Part shown: one piece after another, positions 3,363-16,909 of the stretch
Layout of the letters: every line of letters starts with the position of its first letter
How positions within the stretch are numbered: position 1 is the first letter of the stretch
Origin: a virus
Lineage: Duplodnaviria > Heunggongvirae > Uroviricota > Caudoviricetes
Length of the DNA: 23,990 nt
Direction: 5' to 3' (one strand)
Virus record (IMG/VR): IMGVR_UViG_2681813314_000025
Coordinates: 1-23,990 of that record
Notes under the pieces: model-generated
The model's database searches: none
The model's input: only the letters and a program-made list of their open reading frames with translations
What the model was told of the DNA's origin: nothing
Program-made: the position numbers and the translations under genes

Positions 3363-3704
3363 ATGGCAATTAATGGCGCTGCAGCAACTGTTCCATTAAG
3401 CCCCGGTGAACGCCTGAATGGACTTAATCACATTGCGGAGTTAAGGGCGAAAGTTTTTGGCCTGAATATTGAGTCAGAGCTTGAGCGGTTTATTAAAGAT
3501 ATGCGTGATCCACGGGATATCAATAATGAACAAAATAAACGGGCACTGGCTGCCATATTCTTTATGGCAAAAATTCCAGCTGAACGTCATAGCATCAGCA
3601 TTAATGAGCTGACCACTGACGAAAAGCGGGAGCTGATTAAAGCAATGAATCATTTTCGTGCAGTGGTGAGCTTATTTCCCAGACGGCTAACCATGCCGAA
3701 TTAA
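3363..3704 (+). CDS. Hypothetical early protein (113 aa)
   Basis: ORF in the early operon with a GGGGGA-type purine-rich stretch upstream; no motif recognised. Confidence 0.55.
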   Translation: MAINGAAATVPLSPGERLNGLNHIAELRAKVFGLNIESELERFIKDMRDPRDINNEQNKRALAAIFFMAKIPAERHSISINELTTDEKRELIKAMNHFRAVVSLFPRRLTMPN

Positions 3705-4005: not shown

Positions 4006-4232
4006 TGGCTGATGCAATGGATCTCGTCCAGCAGCGCGTTGAAGAAGAACGCCAACGTCATATCCGTGCTGCCCGTGCCAAAACGCCGGGCGTGTCCCGC
4101 GTGCTTTGCGTTGAGTGTGAAGCGCCAATTCCGCCAGCACGCCGTCGTGCCATTCCGGGTGTGCAGCTTTGCATTACCTGTCAGGAAATCGCAGAGCTGA
4201 AAGGCAAACATTACAACGGAGGTGCTGTATGA
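4005..4232 (+). CDS. TraR/DksA-family C4 zinc-finger protein
   Basis: CxxC-X17-CxxC (CVEC ... CITC) in a 75-aa protein, the spacing typical of the DksA/TraR C4 finger. This differs from the Ogr/Delta CxxC-X22-CxxxxC spacing, so it is not called as the late activator. Confidence 0.7.
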   Translation: MADAMDLVQQRVEEERQRHIRAARAKTPGVSRVLCVECEAPIPPARRRAIPGVQLCITCQEIAELKGKHYNGGAV

Positions 4233-5086
4233 GCACCATCCTGAAATGGGCGGGAAATAAAACCGCCATAATGTCCGAACTGAAAAAGCATCTTCCTGCT
4301 GGCCCGCGACTGGTTGAACCTTTCGCGGGTTCCTGTGCAGTGATGATGGAGACGGATTACCCCAGCTATCTTGTTGCGGATATTAATCCTGATTTAATCA
4401 ACCTCTATAAAAAGGTTGCTGCTGATTGTGAGGCGTTTATATCTCGTGCCAGAGCTTTATTTGAGGAAGCAAACAGGGAGGTGGCTTATTACAACATAAG
4501 GCAGGAGTTTAATTACTCCACTGAAATTACTGATTTCATGAAAGCGGTATATTTTCTGTATCTCAATCGTCATGGTTACCGTGGATTATGTCGCTATAAC
4601 AAGAGCGGGTATTTCAACATTCCCTACGGTAATTATAAAAATCCGTATTTCCCTGAAAAAGAAATTCGCGCATTTGCAGAGAAAGCCCAGCGGGCAACGT
4701 TTATCTGCGCCAGCTTTGATGAAACGCTGGCGATGTTGAAGGCGGGGGATGTGGTGTATTGCGATCCGCCGTATGACGGTACGTTTTCCGGCTATCACAC
4801 TGATGGTTTCACTGAAGATGACCAGTATCACCTGGCATCCGTTCTTGAACATCGGTCATCAGAAGGACATCCGGTCATTGTTTCTAACAGTGACACATCC
4901 CTGATCCGTTCGCTGTATCGCAATTTTACTCACCACTACATCAAGGCAAAACGCAGCATCGGTGTGGCAGCTGGTGATAGTAAATCTGCAACAGAAATCA
5001 TTGCTGTTTCCGGGGCGCGCTGCTGGGTGGGATTTGATCCTTCGCGTGGCGTAGATAGTTCTGCTGTGTACGAGGTGCGTGTATGA
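4229..5086 (+). CDS. dam: DNA N6-adenine methyltransferase, Dam/D12 class (probable GATC specificity)
   Basis: N-terminal ILKWAGNK plus the AdoMet motif EPFAGSCAV, and the catalytic DPPY motif ([12 protein letters not shown]). The start overlaps the upstream stop (ATGA). Confidence 0.85.
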
Positions 5087-7476
5087 GTCATGACGATATG
5101 AGCAACTCTAGCGGCTTTAACGAGGCCGCTGCATCATTTTCATGGAACGGCCCGAAAAAGGCCATTAACCCTTATCTGGACCCGGCGGAATTTGCGCCGG
5201 AGTCTGCACTTTCAAACCTGATCACTCTGTATGCTGCCGATAACGAGCAGGAACAACTGCGCCGCGAGGCACTGAGTGAGCAGGTCTGGGAGCGTTATTT
5301 CTTTAATGAATCCCGTGATCCTGTCCAGCGCGAAATGGAGCAGGATAAGCTCATTAGCCGGGCAAAGCTGGCGCATGAGCAGCAGCGTTTTAATCCAGAC
5401 ATGGTCATTCTGGCTGACGTCAACGCCCAGCCTTCCCATATCAGCAAGCCGCTGATGCAACGTATTGAATACTTCAGCAGTCTGGGCAGGCCAAAGGCTT
5501 ATTCCCGCTATTTGCGTGAGACGATTAAGCCATGTCTGGAAAGACTGGAGCATGTACGCGACAGTCAGCTATCCACTTCTTTTCGCTTTATGGCAAGCCA
5601 TGAAGGGCTGGACGGCCTGCTGATCCTGCCTGAAATGAGTCAGGATCAGGTAAAACGCCTGTCCACCCTGGTAGCAGCGCATATGAGCATGTGTCTTGAG
5701 GTCGCTTGTGGTGATTTGTATGCCACCGATGACGTTAAGCCAGAAGAAATCCGCAAGACATGGGAAAAGGTGGCGGCGGAAACCCTGCGACTGGATGTCA
5801 TACCGCCTGCGTTTGAGCAACTCCGCCGGAAAAGAAACCGCCGTAAACCCGTGCCCTATGAACTTATTCCGGGTTCGCTGGCGCGTATGTTGTGCGCCGA
5901 CTGGTGGTATCGGAAATTATGGAAGATGCGTAGCGAATGGCGGGAAGAGCAGTTGCGTGCTGTTTGCCTGGTCAGCAAAAAAGCATCTCCCTATGTCAGC
6001 TATGAAGCCGTGATGCATAAACGTGAGCAGCGCCGTAAGTCGCTGGAGTTTTTCCGTTCTCATGAACTGGTGAACGAAGACGGCGACACGCTGGATATGG
6101 AAGACGTGGTAAACGCCAGCAGCAGCAACCCTGCGCATCGCCGCAATGAGATGATGGCCTGTGTTAAAGGTCTGGAGCTTATCGCGGAAATGCGCGGTGA
6201 CTGCGCCGTTTTCTACACCATCACCTGTCCGTCACGTTTCCATTCCACGCTAAATAACGGCAGGCCAAACCCGACCTGGACCAACGCGACAGTAAGACAA
6301 AGCAGCGATTATCTGGTCGGCATGTTTGCTGCATTTCGTAAGGCTATGCACAAAGCCGGGTTGCGCTGGTATGGCGTGCGGGTGGCTGAGCCGCATCATG
6401 ACGGCACAGTTCACTGGCACCTGTTGTGTTTCATGCGCAAAAAAGACCGCCGCGCCATTACTGCATTGTTGCGTAAGTTTGCCATCCGTGAAGACCGCGA
6501 GGAGCTGGGCAATAACACGGGGCCACGCTTTAAGTCTGAGCTGATAAACCCGCGCAAAGGAACGCCGACAAGCTACATTGCGAAATATATCAGTAAGAAT
6601 ATTGACGGGCGTGGTCTGGCTGGCGAGATCAGTAAGGAAACGGGTAAATCCCTGCGTGATAACGCTGAATACGTTAATGCCTGGGCGTCTCTGCATCGTG
6701 TTCAGCAATTCCGCTTCTTTGGCATTCCGGGGCGTCAGGCTTACCGTGAACTGCGATTGCTGGCTGGTCAGGCGGCAAGGCAACAGGGGGACAAAAAAGC
6801 AGGTGCGCCGGTACTGGATAACCCGCGCCTTGATGCAATCCTGGCTGCTGCTGATGCTGGTTGTTTTGCCACTTACATCATGAAGCAGGGCGGCGTACTG
6901 GTTCCCCGCAAATATCACCTCATCAGAACTGCTTATGAAATTAACGAAGAGCCGACCGCCTATGGCGATCACGGCATTCGTATTTATGGCATCTGGTCAC
7001 CCATTGCAGAGGGCAAGATCTGCACTCATGCAGTGAAGTGGAAAATGGTTCGTAAAGCCGTTGACGTTCAGGAGGCGGTAGCCGACCAGGGCGCTTGCGC
7101 CCCTTGGACTCGTGGCAATAACTGTCCCCCTGTTGAAAATATGAACAAATCAGGGGGGGATTTACCCGATATTAAAACCATGGATGAGAAGGAGCTGCAG
7201 GAATATCTCCACAACATGGGCCAGAAGGAACGGCGGGAGCTGACAGCCAGGTTGAGACTGGTAAAACCGAAGCGAAAAAAAGCATACATACAGAGTATTT
7301 CGGAGCAGCAGCGCCTGCAGCTTGAGGCAGAACTGACTGCCAGAGGGTTTGAGGGTAGTGTATCTGAGATTGATTTGCTTCTGCGTGGCGGCAGCATTCC
7401 ATCCGGTGCCGGTTTACGTATTTTTTACCGTAAACAGAGGCTGCAGGAAGATGACAAATGGCGTCGATGGTACTAA
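5083..7476 (+). CDS. Replication initiation endonuclease (P2 gpA-type HUH rolling-circle initiator)
   Basis: 797 aa, carrying an HUH-like motif ([13 protein letters not shown]) and a paired-tyrosine motif ([10 protein letters not shown]) as in gpA/phiX174 A-type nickases. It sits between the early operon and the tum/DinI region, as in P2/186. Confidence 0.9.
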
Positions 7477-7568
7477 GGATGCTGTTTAACATTTCGTGCT
7501 TTATTGACTGGAGTCAGTACATCCAATTGACTGACAAAAAAGAGTTTTACATTTTTTCTTTCCTACTA

Positions 7569-7588
7569 TACTGTTTGTATAAACAGTG
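7569..7588 (+). promoter_or_regulatory. LexA (SOS) box TACTGTTTGTATAAACAGTG overlapping a candidate -10 hexamer TATACT (7567-7572)
   Basis: CTGT-N8-ACAG with a strong match to the consensus TACTGTATATATATACAGTA, about 50 nt upstream of the ORF starting at 7635. Confidence 0.6.
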
Positions 7589-7634
7589 GGTATATGTACA
7601 GTATTTGTGTATCCGTGTAATGATAGGAGGGAAG

Positions 7635-7823
7635 ATGCAGGACTATCTTTTGGAGTCATTGAAGCTCCAGCGTATTGATTTTTTTATCAAGCTTGTAGCG
7701 GCTAGTGAGTGCAGCGACGAAGAAAAGCGGCTGGCTATCCAGTGGGTGTCCGAACTGACAGATGAGTTGATGGCGAAAATTCGCAGCCATGAATACAGCC
7801 GATCAATGGACGTTACCAGTTAA
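7635..7823 (+). CDS. Hypothetical small protein; candidate N-terminal module of a Tum-like SOS-induced antirepressor
   Basis: ATG at 7635 preceded by AGGAGGG. It lies directly downstream of the LexA box and immediately upstream of the DinI-like gene. The track's 121-aa version begins upstream of the promoter and is not used. Confidence 0.5.
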   Translation: MQDYLLESLKLQRIDFFIKLVAASECSDEEKRLAIQWVSELTDELMAKIRSHEYSRSMDVTS

Positions 7824-7835
7824 AGGGAAATCTGT

Positions 7836-8057
7836 ATGCGCATTGAAATAATGATCGATAAAGAGCAGAAGATTAGCCAGGCCACACTGGAAGCTCTTGA
7901 ATCCGAGCTCTACCGTAATTTGCGCCCTCTGTATCCCAAAACAGCAATTCGTATCCGTAAGGGCAGCGCCAATGGTGTTGAACTGAGCGGGTTAAAACTG
8001 GATGAAGACAAAAAGCGAGTAATGGAAATAATGCAGCAGGTTACATTAAAACGTTGA
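7836..8057 (+). CDS. DinI-like protein (73 aa)
   Basis: MRIEIMIDKEQKIS..LE.L..EL.... resembles recalled E. coli DinI (MRIEVTIAKT..); the size fits and the gene is in an SOS-regulated context. Confidence 0.75.
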   Translation: MRIEIMIDKEQKISQATLEALESELYRNLRPLYPKTAIRIRKGSANGVELSGLKLDEDKKRVMEIMQQVTLKR

Positions 8058-8247: not shown

Positions 8248-8292
8248 CTAGCTAATCCTGAATGTGGGTTAGTGGAAATTACAAGGAAATAT

Positions 8293-9474
8293 ATGAAACT
8301 GACTGAGCTAACTATAAACGGTATCGGGGGGATAAAGTCCCTGTACGTAAAATTTAGGCCTGACATGAATATTATATGTGGGCCTAACGGAGTTGGAAAA
8401 TCCACACTCTTGCTTGCTGCCTCCTTTCCTTTTCTTCATGGATACACTAATAGAATAAAACGCAATGTCACTTCTGAAACAGGAAGTGTTAGTCTAATAA
8501 TAGAAGATAATTCTGTTAACTTTAATTCAGTATTAGATGTTAACGTTCATTTGCCTACAGAAACAATTCACAACTTTAATAATAACGGATTTGATAAGAG
8601 GAAACTAATAAAATTTGAAATATTACGTAACTTTGATTATAAACATCTTGAGGCGTTGAATGCAGATAAATCACTATCCGATGATGCTGTTTCGCAACAG
8701 ATTAATTTAGGTGTCAATTTACATGATATCAAGGATTGGTTTGCTAAGAGGGATTTGTTTGAAAAAGTAGATAATGGTTACGGTCCTAATACGATAAAAA
8801 ATATACATCTTGCAAGGGAGTGTATATCAATTTTAAACCCTCAGTTTTCTTACAATCGCGTCGATCCTAAATCTTACGATATTTTTGTAAATACCCCGAC
8901 CGGGGTAATATGGTATGAATATCTGTCCTCGGGATTCAAATCATGTATGAGTCTCCTTCTCGGTATTATTAAAGAGATCGAGCTTCGTTATCCGGAGAAA
9001 GATATTTACGCCCAAGAATTTGATGGAGTGATTCTTATCGATGAAATTGAGCTTCATTTGCATCCTGAGTGGCAGGCAAGAATCACTGAAGCCCTTACGA
9101 CAACATTTCCATCAGCACAATTTATTGTCACAACTCACAGCCCACATGTAGTACAGAATGCAAAACCACATCAGATCATTGCGTTAGTACCAGATAATGA
9201 TGGCACAGTGAGAGTAAAAGAACTTCCTGAAAATGGCTTGGGTTATTCTGCCTGGACAGTTGAAGAGGTTTTGTTAGATGTAATGGGGATGGAAAGCACT
9301 CTCAGTAGAAAACTACAAGAACTACTTGATAATTTCGAACGTTTTGTTGATGAAGAAAATTTCGACAAGGCGAAAGAAATTTATGATTATTTGGATATGG
9401 CATTGCATCAAAACAGTATTCTTCGTAAATCTCTTAAAATAAGCCTGATGTCAATTCGAGAGAGAGAAGAGTAA
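8293..9474 (+). CDS. ABC/OLD-type (AAA_21-like) ATPase with no fused nuclease domain; PtuA-like
   Basis: Walker A GPNGVGKST near the N-terminus, an ABC-signature-like LSSGFKS, Walker B/D-loop ILIDEIELHLHP, and an H-loop (TTHSP). There is a long insertion between Walker A and B, as in OLD/Gabija/PtuA-class ATPases. ATG at 8293 with AAGGA upstream (the track's GTG at 8272 is less likely). AT-rich. Confidence 0.8.
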   Translation: MKLTELTINGIGGIKSLYVKFRPDMNIICGPNGVGKSTLLLAASFPFLHGYTNRIKRNVTSETGSVSLIIEDNSVNFNSVLDVNVHLPTETIHNFNNNGFDKRKLIKFEILRNFDYKHLEALNADKSLSDDAVSQQINLGVNLHDIKDWFAKRDLFEKVDNGYGPNTIKNIHLARECISILNPQFSYNRVDPKSYDIFVNTPTGVIWYEYLSSGFKSCMSLLLGIIKEIELRYPEKDIYAQEFDGVILIDEIELHLHPEWQARITEALTTTFPSAQFIVTTHSPHVVQNAKPHQIIALVPDNDGTVRVKELPENGLGYSAWTVEEVLLDVMGMESTLSRKLQELLDNFERFVDEENFDKAKEIYDYLDMALHQNSILRKSLKISLMSIREREE

Positions 9475-9475
9475 A

Positions 9476-10222
9476 ATGATTAAGCTTGAACGGAACTTTA
9501 TTCCTGATTTTTTTACTCGTGTTGATCTTCTATCTTTAACTCAGGAGTTTAAAGATAATGGAACATCTGTTTGGCATCATCCGGAAGTAAAATCGGCATG
9601 TCTAAAATTAAGTAATGGCAAATGTGCATTTTGTGAGGTCAAGCTTGAAGAGGCTAGCACCTATAATGAAATTGAGCATTTTAAGGATAAAAAAAATTTC
9701 CCTGATGATGTTATTAGATGGGAAAATCTCCTTCCTTCATGCCGTCACTGTAATGGTTCAAAACAACGCCATAATGTTGTACTCAATCCTATAATAAATC
9801 CATGCAACGATTTACCGTCAGAACACCTTTATATGATAGGGTATCGTATTAAAGGTAAAACTGATTTAGGTAAAACAACAGTGGATGTTTTAAACTTTAA
9901 TCACAGGGAGCACAAGTTTATACCGCGTTGTAAAGCAGGGGAACTTATAGATAGCAGTATTGATGACGCAATAGAAAAACTTAATTGGTTTAATGAGAAT
10001 CCAAGTACTAGACGTAAAAACATTCTTATGAATCTAGTCGAGGCAATATTAGGTGAGTGTCAGAAAACATCTCCCTTTTCTGCAGTATCAGCAACAATGC
10101 TTCATCGTTCAGTCGAATATTCTTATCTGAAAGAAACCATGCAGATGCAAGGATTATGGTCAGATTATATGCAGGAACTTCATGATGAATCTTTGAGCCT
10201 GACGTTACCGTCAATTCGCTAG
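9476..10222 (+). CDS. HNH endonuclease (PtuB-like)
   Basis: Classic zinc-coordinated HNH finger: CAFCE..(12)..EIEHF ... WENLLPSCRHCNGSK. The start is 1 nt after the ATPase stop, so the two are translationally coupled. Confidence 0.8.
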   Translation: MIKLERNFIPDFFTRVDLLSLTQEFKDNGTSVWHHPEVKSACLKLSNGKCAFCEVKLEEASTYNEIEHFKDKKNFPDDVIRWENLLPSCRHCNGSKQRHNVVLNPIINPCNDLPSEHLYMIGYRIKGKTDLGKTTVDVLNFNHREHKFIPRCKAGELIDSSIDDAIEKLNWFNENPSTRRKNILMNLVEAILGECQKTSPFSAVSATMLHRSVEYSYLKETMQMQGLWSDYMQELHDESLSLTLPSIR

Positions 10223-10248
10223 TTAATACAGTTTTGCCCATAAAAGCT

Positions 10249-10285
10249 AAACGTTCAGATATTCTTGGCTGAACGTTTGATTTTA
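10249..10285 (+). terminator. Rho-independent terminator (10-bp perfect stem AAACGTTCAG/CTGAACGTTT, 10-nt loop, T-rich tail)
   Basis: Perfect inverted repeat 27 nt downstream of the HNH stop, followed by GATTTTAT. Confidence 0.6.
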
Positions 10286-10567
10286 TGAAGACGATAAGCA
10301 GATTGGGCCCGAGTGAGTATCTCGGGAAAATAAACCATTTACATACTATGTTTAACGTTCAAAGCACACCTCAAGCTTTCTTAGTTCTTCTGCTTCGATA
10401 TATAAACGGTCATTTGGTTACGAACATTCACTTCTCCCCTAAGTGCATGGCTATGCTGCATGAGATCGCATGACCGTTTGAGGAGCGTTGTAACGCAGGC
10501 GTGCCAGTTGTGACGGACTTTTTCGTATGTTATGCACCTGCATGAAAACCATTGCACAAAGCGGGCA

Positions 10568-10586
10568 GGCGTGGCGGGGATACGAG
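10568..10586. other. Candidate cos site (cohesive-end region) of the P2/186-type phage
   Basis: GGCGTGGCGGGGA matches the first 13 nt of the 186 cohesive end as I recall it (GGCGTGGCGGGGAAAGCAT; P2 is GGCGAGGCGGGGAAAGCAC). It lies in a non-coding stretch between the right-end cargo and the portal side, where cos is expected. Confidence 0.45.
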
Positions 10587-10696
10587 CGCGCGCTCATGGT
10601 TGAATTAATGAAATTATGGTGTTAAATAGGCTAGCTTTTTAAGTCGTGAATATTCAATTTTTCAACTCATTTTTTTCATAGGGAGGAGTAATTGAC

Positions 10697-11395
10697 ATGG
10701 TTATGTTAGTGGATGACTGTCCACGATGTGGATCACAAAAAATAGCGTTTGATGTTAATGGGCTGAATTGCACTAGGGTTTACAATGCATTGGGCGGGGG
10801 TAAAACATACGAGTACGAGGTCTATTGTGTTTGCCGAGAGTGTCATAAAACGACAATGTTTCTTTGCAGACCTTTAACGAAAAATAAAACTTTAGATGGC
10901 TATAATTGGGAAAGTGGAATATTCGGCTTAAAGGAAGTTGCAGAGGTTGTTAGGCCTATATCACCGGCAGACTTAGCAGTAGAGGAGCCACCAGAGTTCT
11001 TACCTGAGCATATCAATAGTGCATATGAGGAAGGGGCGAAATGTTTGGCTATAGGTTGTTATAATGCAGCAGCAACCATGTTTAGGCTTTGCCTTGATTA
11101 TGCCACAAAAGGACTTCTTCCTGATGGGGAGCAAGGGCCTGCGCAAAAAATAAGGAGAAGCCTAGGGTTAAGAATGGAGTGGTTATTTGATAATCATCTA
11201 CTGCCTGAAGCTTTAAGGGAACTAGCTGAATGCGTTAAAGATGACGGAAATGATGGAGCGCATGAAGGTATTTTGGATAAAGCTGCTGCTGAGGATCTTG
11301 AAGATTTTACCTATCTTTTTTTAGAACGGCTTTACACTGAACCTCAACGCCTTATCGAAGCCAAGACAAGGCGTGAACAAAGAAGAAACAAATAA
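10697..11395 (+). CDS. Zinc-ribbon protein with a DUF4145-like C-terminal helical domain (232 aa); cargo gene of unknown function
   Basis: N-terminal CPRCGS ... CVCRECH cysteine cluster. The C-terminal region has the R...L / GNDGAHE pattern I associate with DUF4145. Strong RBS AGGGAGGAG. It lies between candidate cos and the portal gene, converging on the portal stop with only 8 bp between stops. Confidence 0.65.
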   Translation: MVMLVDDCPRCGSQKIAFDVNGLNCTRVYNALGGGKTYEYEVYCVCRECHKTTMFLCRPLTKNKTLDGYNWESGIFGLKEVAEVVRPISPADLAVEEPPEFLPEHINSAYEEGAKCLAIGCYNAAATMFRLCLDYATKGLLPDGEQGPAQKIRRSLGLRMEWLFDNHLLPEALRELAECVKDDGNDGAHEGILDKAAAEDLEDFTYLFLERLYTEPQRLIEAKTRREQRRNK

Positions 11396-11403
11396 GTTCG
11401 GAA

Positions 11404-12441
11404 TTATTCTTCTGAAAGAATATAGGGCGTAAATTTAATCACTTCTTCGCCCAGCCAGTCGTTCAGCTCTTGTAGCCTTTTTTGCAAGGGCGTTAATTCA
11501 TTACGTACAAATACGCGACTGGCCTTCTCCACATCCCCAAACCCCCCGACATTATTAGGCATTATCCCCATCATTTGTGGCGGCACACGATGCGCCGCCA
11601 TCATGTCGTCCCGGCTCACGTTCTTGATATTCAGGAACTCATCCTTCGCCGCCACTTCTGACAACGGGATAATCTGAAGCCCGTCCTTTTTACCGTTAGG
11701 CGAGTACATAAACAGGTTACGGAAGTTACCAGGACCTTTGGCGCTTTTCATCGCATTGCGGAGGTTGTTCACATCCTCCTGGTTCTGCGCTGCATCGGTC
11801 ATGTACATGATGAAGCCTGCATGACTGCCGTTAATGTAATACTTGCGGCGGAACAGCGTGGCGGACTCGTTGAGCAGAGCTGACGGAATGGCAGAAAGAT
11901 AACCAGGCAGGCCGTAGATCTCCTGGTTGATGTCCGGTTCCATCAGATGAAAAATGTTGCCTTTCGTGAACTGATACGGCTGTGTAGTCATGCCGTATTG
12001 CACAAACCAGTAGGTATCAAGGTCTAACCCGCGTCGGGTGTATTTTGCCAGTGCAGGCTCAAGGGCGATAACTTCACCGAAGCGGTTCGTGCGTTTCTCC
12101 AGGTAGGCGTTACCAAAAACCAGATAGTCCTGTACAAAACGCGAAAAAGCCTGCTGGCTGAGCAGCGGGTGAGGGATGTAGGTGCTGGTCAGAATGTTGC
12201 ACTTCACTGCAATCGGTGAGCTGTGATGCACGGCGGCGCGGAAGGTTCGCGCCAGTCCGTCGAAACTCACAGGCGGCTCGTACCAACGATCCATCTGTAC
12301 GCATTCCACATAGTCCAGCAGTTCGCGGCGGTCCAGAACAGGAACGGGATCACCGAAGCTGAATGCTTCGGCTGAAGTCTGGCTTTTATGCTGGATCTGT
12401 TTCGTCGACGCAGCGCGGTTCTTCTTACTCTTTCCCATCAA
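11404..12441 (-). CDS. Phage portal protein (P2 gpQ family)
   Basis: 345 aa (P2 Q is ~344 aa), immediately downstream of and 4-nt-overlapped by the terminase gene on the same strand, adjacent to cos. Confidence 0.9.
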   Translation of the reverse strand: MMGKSKKNRAASTKQIQHKSQTSAEAFSFGDPVPVLDRRELLDYVECVQMDRWYEPPVSFDGLARTFRAAVHHSSPIAVKCNILTSTYIPHPLLSQQAFSRFVQDYLVFGNAYLEKRTNRFGEVIALEPALAKYTRRGLDLDTYWFVQYGMTTQPYQFTKGNIFHLMEPDINQEIYGLPGYLSAIPSALLNESATLFRRKYYINGSHAGFIMYMTDAAQNQEDVNNLRNAMKSAKGPGNFRNLFMYSPNGKKDGLQIIPLSEVAAKDEFLNIKNVSRDDMMAAHRVPPQMMGIMPNNVGGFGDVEKASRVFVRNELTPLQKRLQELNDWLGEEVIKFTPYILSEE

Positions 12442-14204
12442 AAAATCTCCACAATATTGCTGGTATTGGCGGACTCGCCCTGCAGCGGTTCGTTAAACAG
12501 TGCGTGCATTGTTGCCCAGGCCAGATCGGCATGGCTGGCTTCTTCGCTGCGGCTGGCTTCATAGGTCGGGCGGTTGCCACTGGCAGTGGTAGCGCGACGG
12601 ATTGCCATAAATGACTGCGCAATGTCGGTGTGCCCGGCGTCAAACTCCAGACGGCGGTGGCTGATAATGTCGTAGGCCTTGAGTACCAGGGCGTTTTTAA
12701 CGTTGGGGTTATAGACAAACTCCCTGACGGCAGGAAAAAACGCTTTCACGTTCTCGTAAACCCCGTGACCGACGCCGGTCGAGTCGATACCGATATAGGT
12801 CACGTTATACTGTTCGGTCAGTTTTTTGATGGCGTCAGCCTGGGCGCGGAAGTCCATCCCGCGCCACTGGTGACGCTCAAGAATGCGGAACTTACCACCC
12901 GGCACGGCTGGCGGAGCCACCACCACGCATCCGGCACTGTCGCCGTTCTGCGTACCTTTTGCCGGGTCATAACCGATCCACACTTCGCGCCAGCCAAACG
13001 GGCGCAGGGCCAGTGCATGAAAGTCGGTCCAGACTTCCCAGCTGTCCACCATGCACGCCTGCAGTTCGCTGAGCGGGAACACGGACGCGAGATCGTCCAC
13101 GAACTCGCACATCAGCAGGTTCTGGTATTCGTCCGGGCTGTACTCCATGCGCAGCTGGTCGAGGTCGAACAGGTTACAGCCGCCGCGCACCGCATCTTCC
13201 ACGGTGACTATCTGGCGGTATTGCCCGTCTGCGCACAGTAGGCCGGGGGCCAGATTGCTGTGGGACAGGTCGATGTCCACCTTGTCAGCTTTGTTGCGTC
13301 CACGGTTGAACAGCGCACCGGACCAGAACGGATAAGCACTGTGGGTCAGGCTGGATGGCGTGGAAAAATAGGTTTGTCGCCATTTCTTGTGAATAGCCAT
13401 ACCGGAAGCCACTTTGCGCAACTCCTGGAATTTCGGTATCCAGAAATATTCATCCAGATACAGGTTGCCGTGGTAACTCTGCGCCGTGCGGGCATTGGTG
13501 CCGAGGAAGTAAAGCGTGGCCCCGTTAGGAAGCACCATCGGATCGCCTTTCAGCTCCACCTCGACTTCTTTGGCGAAGTCGATGATGTACTGCTTAAAGA
13601 CGTGAGCCTGTGCCTTACTGGCAGAAAGGAAAATCTGGTTACGTCCGGTAAGCAGGGCGTCAATCAGGGCTTCACGGGCAAAGTAAAAGGTCGCGCCGAT
13701 CTGGCGTGACTTCAGCAGGTTGCGGATGCGGTTGGTTTTTCCGGCTTCCCACCAGTGGCGCTGGTAGTTGAACATGGAGGAATGGAAGATTTCTTCCAGT
13801 TTCTCTATCTGTTCATCGGTGAAAACATTCTTTTCCGGCTGACGGCGCGGGCCTTTGTTGCGGTTGGCGACGTTAGGGTTTAAGTCGGCTTCGTTGCCGC
13901 CATTGTTAAACTTGCCGATCCGCGCGTGGCGCTCCGACTGGCGCGCCAGCAGGTCAATTTCTTTGAAATCTTTCCCTTCTTTGTGCTCCTTCATAATGAG
14001 CTGGCAGTAACGTGCGGCGGTGGTGAGCTGCATCTGATCCAGCGGCCCATAGTCACCCCACTTGTCGCGTTTCTTCCAGCTGTGAACGGTTGCAACTTTC
14101 TCGCCCAGCATTTCAGCAATGCGGGCTACGCGGTATCCCTGAAAGTACAGCAGCATGGCCTGCCGACGGGGATCGAGATCTGCGGGTGTCAGTGTGGTGT
14201 TCAT
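12438..14204 (-). CDS. Terminase large (ATPase) subunit (P2 gpP family)
   Basis: 588 aa (P2 P is ~590 aa), divergent from the scaffold/capsid operon, in the conserved P2 position. Confidence 0.9.
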   Translation of the reverse strand: MNTTLTPADLDPRRQAMLLYFQGYRVARIAEMLGEKVATVHSWKKRDKWGDYGPLDQMQLTTAARYCQLIMKEHKEGKDFKEIDLLARQSERHARIGKFNNGGNEADLNPNVANRNKGPRRQPEKNVFTDEQIEKLEEIFHSSMFNYQRHWWEAGKTNRIRNLLKSRQIGATFYFAREALIDALLTGRNQIFLSASKAQAHVFKQYIIDFAKEVEVELKGDPMVLPNGATLYFLGTNARTAQSYHGNLYLDEYFWIPKFQELRKVASGMAIHKKWRQTYFSTPSSLTHSAYPFWSGALFNRGRNKADKVDIDLSHSNLAPGLLCADGQYRQIVTVEDAVRGGCNLFDLDQLRMEYSPDEYQNLLMCEFVDDLASVFPLSELQACMVDSWEVWTDFHALALRPFGWREVWIGYDPAKGTQNGDSAGCVVVAPPAVPGGKFRILERHQWRGMDFRAQADAIKKLTEQYNVTYIGIDSTGVGHGVYENVKAFFPAVREFVYNPNVKNALVLKAYDIISHRRLEFDAGHTDIAQSFMAIRRATTASGNRPTYEASRSEEASHADLAWATMHALFNEPLQGESANTSNIVEIF

Positions 14205-16258: not shown

Positions 16259-16909
16259 ATGAGCCTGAGTCCCGCACGGCAGCATCGCCTGCGCGTTCAG
16301 GCTGAACAGGCCGCTCGCGAGGGTGGCAGTGTTCGCCACGCGTCGGGCTATGACCTGATGCTGCTGCAACTGGCGGAAGACCGCCGCCGTCTCAAGGGCG
16401 TTCAGTCCACGGTCAAAAAAGCGGAAATCAAGGTGGAGCTGCTGCCGAAATATGCCGCCTGGGCGGAGGGCGTTCTGGCTGCCGGAGGCGCTCAACAGGA
16501 TGACGTGCTGATGTACGTGATGCTGTGGCGCATTGATGCCGGAGATTATGCAGGGGCGCTGGAGATCGGGCGTCATGCCCTGCGTCATGGCTGGGTGATG
16601 CCGCTGGGTAACCGCAACGTGCAGACCGTGCTGGCAGAGGAAATGGCAGACGCGGCGCAGAGCGCAATGCTTGCCGCCACCGGCTTTGATGCCGATCTGT
16701 TGCTGCAGACGCTGGAGCTGGCAGACGGTCTGGATATGCCGGACCAGTCACGGGCGCGTCTGCATAAAGCGATTGGCGCTGTCCTGAGTGAAAGCAACCC
16801 GGCTTCCGCCCTTAATCATCTCAACCATGCGTTACAGCTCGATCCTCGCTGTGGCGTGAAAAAAGACAAACAGCAGCTGGAGCGCAGACTGCGCAATGAC
16901 AGCCGCTGA
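16259..16909 (+). CDS. Terminase small/endonuclease subunit (P2 gpM family)
   Basis: 216 aa, directly after the capsid gene. Confidence 0.8.
   Translation: MSLSPARQHRLRVQAEQAAREGGSVRHASGYDLMLLQLAEDRRRLKGVQSTVKKAEIKVELLPKYAAWAEGVLAAGGAQQDDVLMYVMLWRIDAGDYAGALEIGRHALRHGWVMPLGNRNVQTVLAEEMADAAQSAMLAATGFDADLLLQTLELADGLDMPDQSRARLHKAIGAVLSESNPASALNHLNHALQLDPRCGVKKDKQQLERRLRNDSR

Follow-up and report, generated by a model that had tools for sequence, protein, structure and literature searches.

In the P2 family, the gpM/gpP terminase recognizes cos, nicks the two strands 19 bp apart, and packages the DNA through the gpQ portal, and P2 is able to package from monomeric circles. Odegrip 2006 is reportedly named in connection with the cos-proximal gpA-gpQ hotspot of P2-like phages. 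The packaging of DNA by terminase subunits at a cos signal is covered in PMC9122126 and PMC10359639, and the concept of a 55-bp cos core belongs to Ziermann and Calendar 1990, as cited in PMC3931495, PMC5694545, and PMC9594776. The gpA-gpQ region is the cos-adjacent defence hotspot of P2-like phages (Rousset et al. 2022, PMC9122126), a study in which Septu is listed under the P4 hotspot and under hotspots of other species, and a 2026 survey of thousands of elements confirms the gpA-gpQ hotspot (PMC13586616). Dodd and Egan 1996 and Nakayama 1999, as cited in PMC5694545, had proposed that foreign genes are picked up in the interval between cosL and the gpQ homologue. That P2-like phages carry cargo to either side of cos is established (PMC9122126, PMC5694545).

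The window, by which we mean the whole stretch of DNA analyzed here (23,990 nucleotides, positions 1 to 23,990 of IMG/VR record IMGVR_UViG_2681813314_000025), is a P2-family prophage in prophage gene order, and it holds only part of the prophage. That order begins on the minus strand with the integrase (1-1209) and a CI repressor of the 186 type (1449-2105), and goes on to a Dam methylase (4169-5086) and, on the plus strand, the gpA replication endonuclease (5083-7476; Pfam Phage_GPA, E = 3e-127). After gpA comes a small ORF and then DinI (7836-8057, plus strand; Pfam DinI, E = 1e-17), and the gpA-small ORF-DinI segment (5083-8057) is the conserved boundary of the hotspot on its right side, with a gpA-DinI gene order that is shared by Cartapus, Fels-2, RE-2010, and E. 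coli prophages. The boundary gene on the left side is the portal, a gpQ homologue on the minus strand (11404-12441; Pfam Phage_portal), which is 98.8% identical to that of Cartapus and 61-65% identical to P2 Q and the 186 portal.

The terminase genes diverge from those of P2 and 186. The large subunit, a gpP homologue (12438-14204, minus strand; Pfam Terminase_5, Terminase_6N, and Terminase_6C), is 99.8% identical to Cartapus and 63% to P2 gpP, and the small subunit, a gpM homologue (16259-16909, plus strand; Pfam Phage_term_smal, E = 5e-40), is 98.1% identical to Cartapus and 48-49% to P2 gpM and 186 R. Next in the window after the large subunit gene there are the scaffold O, capsid N, small terminase M, and L, and then lysis and tail genes. 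The order gpA-DinI-cargo-cos-cargo-Q(-)-P(-)-O-N-M-L agrees with P2 and 186, and cognate gpP- and gpM-type terminase genes are carried in the same element as the cos site discussed below. The plus strand of the window runs in the same direction as the P2 map, and the first-pass annotation was therefore correct in assigning an ATPase-HNH cassette to the right end of the virion genome and a DUF4145-like gene to the left end.

The 13-mer GGCGTGGCGGGGA is found on the plus strand at 10568-10580, as a single copy in the window. The first-pass annotation had equated it with the beginning of the phage 186 cohesive end, and this agrees with the GenBank record: bases 1-19 of U32222 are GGCGTGGCGGGGAAAGCAT, annotated as "cos; cohesive end", and the 13-mer equals bases 1-13. 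For P2, record AF063097 has cosL annotated as GGCGAGGCGGGGAAAGCAC. A question with any match this short is whether it might have come about by chance. When 2 mismatches are allowed, the 13-mer pattern is expected 0.66 times per window, but the exact 13-mer arose in none of 100 dinucleotide-preserving shuffles, and the homology extends past it into a core matching at 43 of 55 positions and into position-locked boxes across 125 bp. A chance match is thereby refuted, as the first-pass annotation had supposed in calling it very unlikely.

To see the site in the context of the known ones, the circular cos junctions of P2, 186, P4, and Cartapus were rebuilt and aligned with the window and 7 related loci. 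The equivalent of the 55-bp P2/P4 cos core is at 10539-10593 on the plus strand, composed of TGCATGAAAACC...AAAGCGGGCA, a 19-mer, and CGCGCGC, or in full TGCATGAAAACCATTGCACAAAGCGGGCA / GGCGTGGCGGGGATACGAG / CGCGCGC. Aligned with no gaps, it has an identity of 43/55 with 186, 43/55 with P4, and 40/55 with P2, and the boxes described below are at the same offsets. The runner-up among ungapped 55-mers on both strands of the window scores 29/55, where the mean is 13.8 and the standard deviation 3.3. The alignment with P2, 186, and P4 continues for about 100 bp further along the right arm past the core. Elements held in common with these 3 are TGCAT(T/G)AAAACC, AAAG(C/T)GGGC, GGCG(A/T)GGCGGGGA, and (T/C)GCGCGC, and the genomic position adjoining Q and P is the same as in P2 and 186.

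Because the core and the GCAT geometry are common to the window, P2, 186, and P4, the window is in register with their cohesive ends, which are 19 nt in each case and are either given as cohesive ends in GenBank records or cited as known cos regions. In that register, the predicted 19-nt cohesive end is GGCGTGGCGGGGATACGAG at 10568-10586 on the plus strand. The top strand is predicted to be nicked 5' of 10568 and the bottom strand after 10586, giving 5' overhangs, with the polarity of the nicks taken from the 186 GenBank cos annotation. The 19-mer agrees with 186 at 15/19 positions and with P2 and P4 at 14/19, the window diverging after base 13. At overhang positions 14-19, 4 of the 6 bases differ from P2 and 186, and the 3' third of the 19-mer reads ATACGAG here versus AAAGCAT or AAAGCAC in P2, 186, and P4. 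The identification with 186 stands over the first 13 nt, and fails for the full 19-mer, which is the variant of Fels-2, SEN8, and Cartapus.

As a putative cohesive end, GGCGTGGCGGGGATACGAG is the cos variant of the Fels-2/Elveevirus group, and it is already published rather than new. It was printed as the cos of the P2-like Salmonella phage SEN8 (PMC5427200), the record of which (NC_047753) begins at the 19-mer, a start that was set by annotation or homology. Among GenBank records, those of SEN8, L-413C, and Midge have a terminus close to the site. In the Cartapus record, the 19-mer is inside a feature described as "putative cos site, homologous to the cos of P2 phage". The cos assignments of SEN8, Cartapus, and Smp131 were all made by homology, and most IMG/VR matches to the 19-mer are prophages cut out of isolate genomes that have the site inside the contig, so the contig termini give no information on the virion ends. 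Cartapus is an Elveevirus prophage of E. coli LF82, and its record is 98% identical to the window over 10540-10700. It is spontaneously induced and encapsidated at a low level, with its DNA present in the LF82 virome and detected by qPCR of virion preparations (PMC9928086), so particles are indeed made by a phage whose packaging module and cos core are essentially the ones seen here.

SEN8, Cartapus, Fels-2, and RE-2010 (Felsduovirus/Elveevirus, Peduoviridae) are the closest comparisons. They have the identical 19-mer and CGCGCG flank, a block of about 155 bp that is 82-98% identical to that of the window, and the same placement of cos between the DinI-side cargo and the portal gene. They differ in what is carried. 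The right-end cargo is Septu in the window, small hypothetical proteins in Cartapus, and a 243-aa hypothetical protein in Fels-2, and RE-2010 has no right-end gene annotated and has an "abortive infection protein" on the left-end side. A hairpin inside the block also differs, being degenerate in the window.

The extent of the block was obtained from a larger collection. A scan of IMG/VR for the exact 19-mer found at least 120 contigs, which together with other loci gave 127 that could be oriented. Aligned on the 19-mer, which makes the anchor identical by construction but not the flanks, these 127 loci have a top-base frequency of 0.8-1.0 at offsets -127 to +26, and 0.33-0.42, which is the random level, on both flanks. 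The full conserved cos block in the window is 10441-10594 on the plus strand, consisting of a right-end arm of about 127 bp, the 19-mer, and a left-end arm of about 8 bp. The block recurs in 79-103 phage records and in 1,242 of 5,426 complete E. coli genomes. All 127 loci with this 19-mer are P2-like phages; a tblastn search among them for P4-like satellites, using Psu, Delta, Sid, Alpha, Gop, Beta, cII, and Epsilon of P4, returned only distant integrase matches.

We conclude that 10441-10594 is very probably the cos packaging site of a P2-family prophage of the Elveevirus/Fels-2 type. The first-pass annotation had proposed a probable cos site here, and the proposal is supported by the 55-bp core, by the roughly 100 bp of right arm, and by the position between the gpA-side accessory region and Q/P.

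Inside the right arm, the most regular feature is a set of GCAT boxes. GCAT is present exactly 4 times within 140 bp left of the cut in each of the window, P2, 186, P4, and Cartapus, where the background is 0.62 per 140 bp. Three distal GCAT(G) boxes on the plus strand of the window start at 10445, 10458, and 10468 (10445-10472), and a proximal one lies within TGCATGAAAACC at 10540-10550, also on the plus strand. The corresponding offsets of -123, -110, -100, and -28 are common to all 5 phages, with the first at -122 in P2. The sequence between the boxes has diverged among the 5, whereas the box columns are conserved, and in the comparison loci the top-base frequency of the proximal box is 0.98 or higher. 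The boxes are candidate binding sites for the small terminase subunit.

The lambda cos, with its parts cosQ, cosN, and cosB, offers a parallel in arrangement. There also, the terminase makes staggered nicks to leave 5' cohesive ends, and an asymmetric recognition region with repeated boxes for the small subunit is found beside the nick (PMC4669245). The lambda site has no sequence similarity to this one, and its overhang is 12 nt versus 19 nt. In addition, the lambda recognition side, cosB, is on the left-end arm, whereas the conserved arm here is the right-end one. The asymmetry of the block, with about 127 bp on the right versus about 8 bp on the left, suggests that recognition would take place on the right-end arm.

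The block is situated in a gap of 474 bp between the ptuB stop codon at 10222 and the start of the DUF4145 gene at 10697, in line with the 470-bp non-coding stretch that had been noted earlier. The only ORF of at least 60 aa in the gap is one of 62 aa at 10285-10473, which has no family match in Pfam or PADLOC. The Rfam search of the gap matched nothing meaningful, and in E. coli EC50, RefSeq annotates no gene in the corresponding identical stretch. We have considered whether the block could be a small gene, an sRNA, or a regulatory region in which the 13-mer is incidental. In some GenBank records, short hypothetical proteins have been annotated over it (MK422453 QBP27627.1 and PP599993 XAF37142.1), and the relatives have a terminator-like hairpin inside it. 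However, the conservation ends abruptly at +26, which is within those annotated ORFs, and neither the family searches nor the RefSeq annotation just described point to a gene or an RNA. The block also lines up in register with the ends that experiments have defined for P2, 186, and P4, including P4 as a satellite that shares essentially only cos with P2. A role other than packaging is for these reasons very improbable.

The cargo on the right-end side of cos begins with PtuA, the Septu ATPase (8272-9474, plus strand). It matches PADLOC model PDLC00305 with E = 1.2e-151 over positions 1-391 of 392, has further matches to Pfam AAA_21 and AAA_15, and scores E = 9.7e-23 against the solved PtuA structure PDB ID: 8ee4. 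The ptuA stop is at 9474 and the ptuB start at 9476, leaving a single base between. PtuB, the Septu HNH nuclease (9476-10222, plus strand), matches PADLOC PDLC00342 with E = 1.6e-95 over positions 1-245 of 247; against Pfam HNH it matches only weakly. Together, the ATPase and the HNH nuclease make up a full-length Septu system, predicted to be anti-phage. Just 3' of ptuB is a stem-loop with a T-rich tail (10248-10286, plus strand) at -14.9 kcal/mol (z = -3.9), and none of 200 shuffles is as stable. It was missed by a simple terminator scan, having a loop longer than the scan allows, and the folding supports the hairpin. It is likely the cassette's own terminator. The segment 10230-10594, which includes this stem-loop, is 100% identical in 4 E. 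coli genomes, and the stem-loop travels with Septu.

On the left-end side is a gene for a protein of 232 aa (10697-11395, plus strand) with a Cys4 zinc ribbon and a DUF4145/HEPN-like domain. The ribbon, CPRC...CVCREC, is N-terminal at residues 8-49, and the Pfam DUF4145 match is 30.3 bits against a cutoff of 23.1. PADLOC gives a weak match to PD-T7-4 (E = 1.2e-6), and a comparison with PDB sequences gave no match at E <= 0.01. The protein is 100% identical to CARTA_1 of Cartapus. PD-T7-4 has been characterized as RAZR, a zinc-finger/HEPN RNase that is activated by assembling around phage rings of portal size (PMC13017515). RAZR has an N-terminal Cys4 zinc ribbon and a C-terminal DUF4145, which is a divergent HEPN, in about 200 aa, and the same architecture is seen here (PMC13017515). 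The GN..AH signature of the 232-aa protein reads K-DD-GN-DG-AH; in RAZR, which is from E. coli UMB1727, the catalytic Arg/His are R146/H154. The architecture fits a RAZR/PD-T7-4-like protein, and we refer to it as a putative member of that group. From cos to the Q stop codon there are 817 bp in the window versus 187-196 bp, holding a terminator, in P2 and 186, so the DUF4145 gene has been inserted on the stretch from cos to the portal gene. In P2 and 186, that stretch contains no gene ahead of the Q terminator.

The position of the hairpin and T-run within the block is 10498-10522 on the plus strand. The consensus among the relatives, GGCCCGCCAGnnCTGGCGGGCTTTT, folds at -22 kcal/mol (z = -3.8), versus -8.2 kcal/mol (z = +0.6) for the version in the window, which is changed at 4 positions that are conserved at 0.89-0.97 among the relatives. 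The same degenerate version is found in E. coli EC50. The junction alignment has no obvious hairpin at the equivalent position in P2. Given that P2 is without a clear hairpin there, and that the Septu cassette has its own terminator, the internal hairpin is probably a transcription terminator that would shield cos, rather than a part of the packaging signal.

This degeneracy bears on the main remaining doubt about the identity of the site, which is mostly that it may be a non-functional relic. The site could be a true cos by descent in a prophage, or at a position, that has become defective, being kept only by recency and making no virion ends. Besides the hairpin changes, such a reading draws on the window's particular pairing of Septu with this DUF4145 gene, found in 0 of 5,426 complete E. 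coli genomes, and on the partial extent of the prophage in the window. On the other hand, every core position from -32 to +26 that is at least 98% conserved is intact, as are all 4 GCAT boxes, and the ORFs of Q, P, O, N, M, and L are complete and match their families over the full length. As for the hairpin itself, the degenerate version is 100% identical in 4 independent E. coli genomes, and P2 itself does without one. We regard a relic as improbable, though less remote than the alternative of a block unconnected with packaging, and prefer the reading of a cos site that is presumably still in use.

That there is cargo on both sides of cos, the ATPase-HNH cassette (here Septu) at the right end and the DUF4145 gene at the left end, was part of the first-pass annotation, and it is supported, as an instance of the established P2-like layout rather than a new one. 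The comparison across loci gives an indication of how the two sides behave. The distance from cos to the Q stop ranges over 148-3541 bp with a median of 1670 bp, and the "empty" P2-like spacing is found in only 10 of 92 loci. On the other side, DinI and cos are 229-3235 bp apart, and 24 of 87 loci are empty. When the 500-bp flanks of 109 loci were clustered, they produced 51 right-flank types and 75 left-flank types in 98 combinations, where the permuted mean is 106, and the adjusted mutual information between right and left flank types is 0.13. Right and left cargo assort nearly, not completely, independently.

Individual genomes show the exchange directly. E. coli EC50 shares the Septu cassette and matches the window at 100% as far as 10594, after which it has other left cargo, namely a protein with a dsDNA-nuclease domain and a hypothetical protein. 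In strains H22 and JSMCR1, the window's DUF4145 gene is paired with other right-side cargo. With the window equal to EC50 up to 10594 and to Cartapus/JSMCR1 from 10558 on, the mosaic junction falls in a 37-bp segment containing the 19-mer. In the published large-scale analyses, gpA-gpQ counts as a single hotspot; here the cos block splits it into 2 sub-loci that exchange cargo nearly independently.

From these observations, we tentatively propose 2 things in addition, and regard this further reading as less likely than not. One is that the block of about 155 bp acts as a fixed homology anchor with 2 cargo slots, where crossovers would occur inside the core of 37-55 bp. The other, which is separate, is that the 4 GCAT boxes are a recognition array for the small terminase subunit, and this, if true, would mean that the recognition arm lies at the right end of the genome. 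Neither proposal was met in the literature covered, outside of which are the 1990 cos paper and P2 reviews. With the same gaps, the block boundaries, the GCAT geometry, and the near-independent assortment with in-core crossover were likewise not met there, and these are not claimed as new. The cos site and the two-sided cargo layout are already known, as the 19-mer is in print as a cos, and both the gpA-gpQ hotspot and the cosL-gpQ insertion point are established.

The expected events in packaging can be put together by analogy with P2, 186, and P4. The terminase encoded by gpM (16259-16909) and gpP (12438-14204) would recognize cos, probably by way of the position-locked GCAT boxes on the right arm, with gpM as the expected recognition subunit and gpP as the expected nicking enzyme. 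Its staggered nicks would fall 5' of 10568 in the top strand and after 10586 in the bottom one, as homology to the known sites implies, and the virion DNA would then have ends with 19-nt 5' overhangs of GGCGTGGCGGGGATACGAG. With the predicted cuts at cos, the Septu cassette (8272-10222) would come last among the gene blocks, at the right end of the virion DNA, and the DUF4145 gene (10697-11395) would come first, at the left end. We expect that the prophage still packages.

For the annotation of this prophage, the prediction fixes where the ends of the virion genome would be, and by the same prediction Septu and the RAZR-like gene would ride at the 2 extremities of the packaged DNA. The conceptual gain is small, with the block boundaries, the GCAT geometry, and the two-slot assortment being modest refinements of what was known. 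These refinements could nevertheless aid in the design of cos plasmids or transducing particles for helpers of the Fels-2/Elveevirus type.

The stretch is a mosaic at its cos site. Its left side, up to position 10594, is 100% identical to the prophage of E. coli EC50, and its right side, from 10558 onward, matches Cartapus, an E. coli Elveevirus relative, and the related prophage of E. coli JSMCR1; therefore the crossover lies within the 37 bp (10558-10594) around the 19-mer that forms the predicted cohesive end (10568-10586).

The cos right arm carries four GCAT boxes, at 10445-10448, 10458-10461, 10468-10471, and 10540-10543, placed by their offsets from the cos nick. A comparison of five right arms, those of the window, P2, 186, P4, and Cartapus, finds the offsets -123/-122, -110, -100, and -28 common to all, and no GCAT beyond those four in any of these 140-bp arms. 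The boxes are candidate binding sites for the small terminase. The cos block of relatives also contains a conserved hairpin with a T-run, at -22 kcal/mol, of which the counterpart at window 10498-10522 is degenerate (-8.2 kcal/mol), as it likewise is in EC50-type E. coli prophages. A second, terminator-like hairpin at 10248-10286 belongs to the Septu (PtuA/PtuB) cassette itself.

In some GenBank phage records, a CDS annotated as hypothetical protein runs across the cos block, as at 2519-2689 of locus L010 (MK422453, QBP27627.1) and 2518-2661 of locus L012 (PP599993, XAF37142.1). Conservation ends within them at +26, so these short CDSs are probably spurious calls. The metagenome contig L088 (IMGVR_UViG_3300011853_000021) has two inverted copies of the 19-mer, 3.2 kb apart at 3447-3465 and 6704-6722, in 2 related P2-like segments arranged head to head as P-Q-cos-DinI and DinI-cos-Q-P, and is probably a chimeric assembly.

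Farther along the right-end side, a D12-class Dam methyltransferase is encoded at 4169-5086, immediately upstream of gpA and overlapping it. Cartapus has such a gene at the same place, and the P2 stretch examined has none at the equivalent position. A mechanically called ORF of 121 aa (7458-7823) overlaps the end of gpA; related records have a 62-aa hypothetical protein (189 bp) annotated between gpA and DinI, and the true ORF is probably shorter than the one called.

On the left-end side, the zinc-ribbon/DUF4145 protein (10697-11395) has the architecture of RAZR (PD-T7-4), a defense RNase for which the reported trigger is the portal rings of other phages (PMC13017515). Its GN..AH signature reads K-DD-GN-DG-AH, and its gene is convergent with the phage's own portal gene (11404-12441), with 8 bp between the gene end and the portal stop. 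Behind the same Septu-cos unit, EC50 carries alternative left-end cargo (L007, 3445-6172), a "dsDNA nuclease domain-containing protein" of 359 aa and a hypothetical protein of 552 aa, and this gene pair may be another two-gene defense system.
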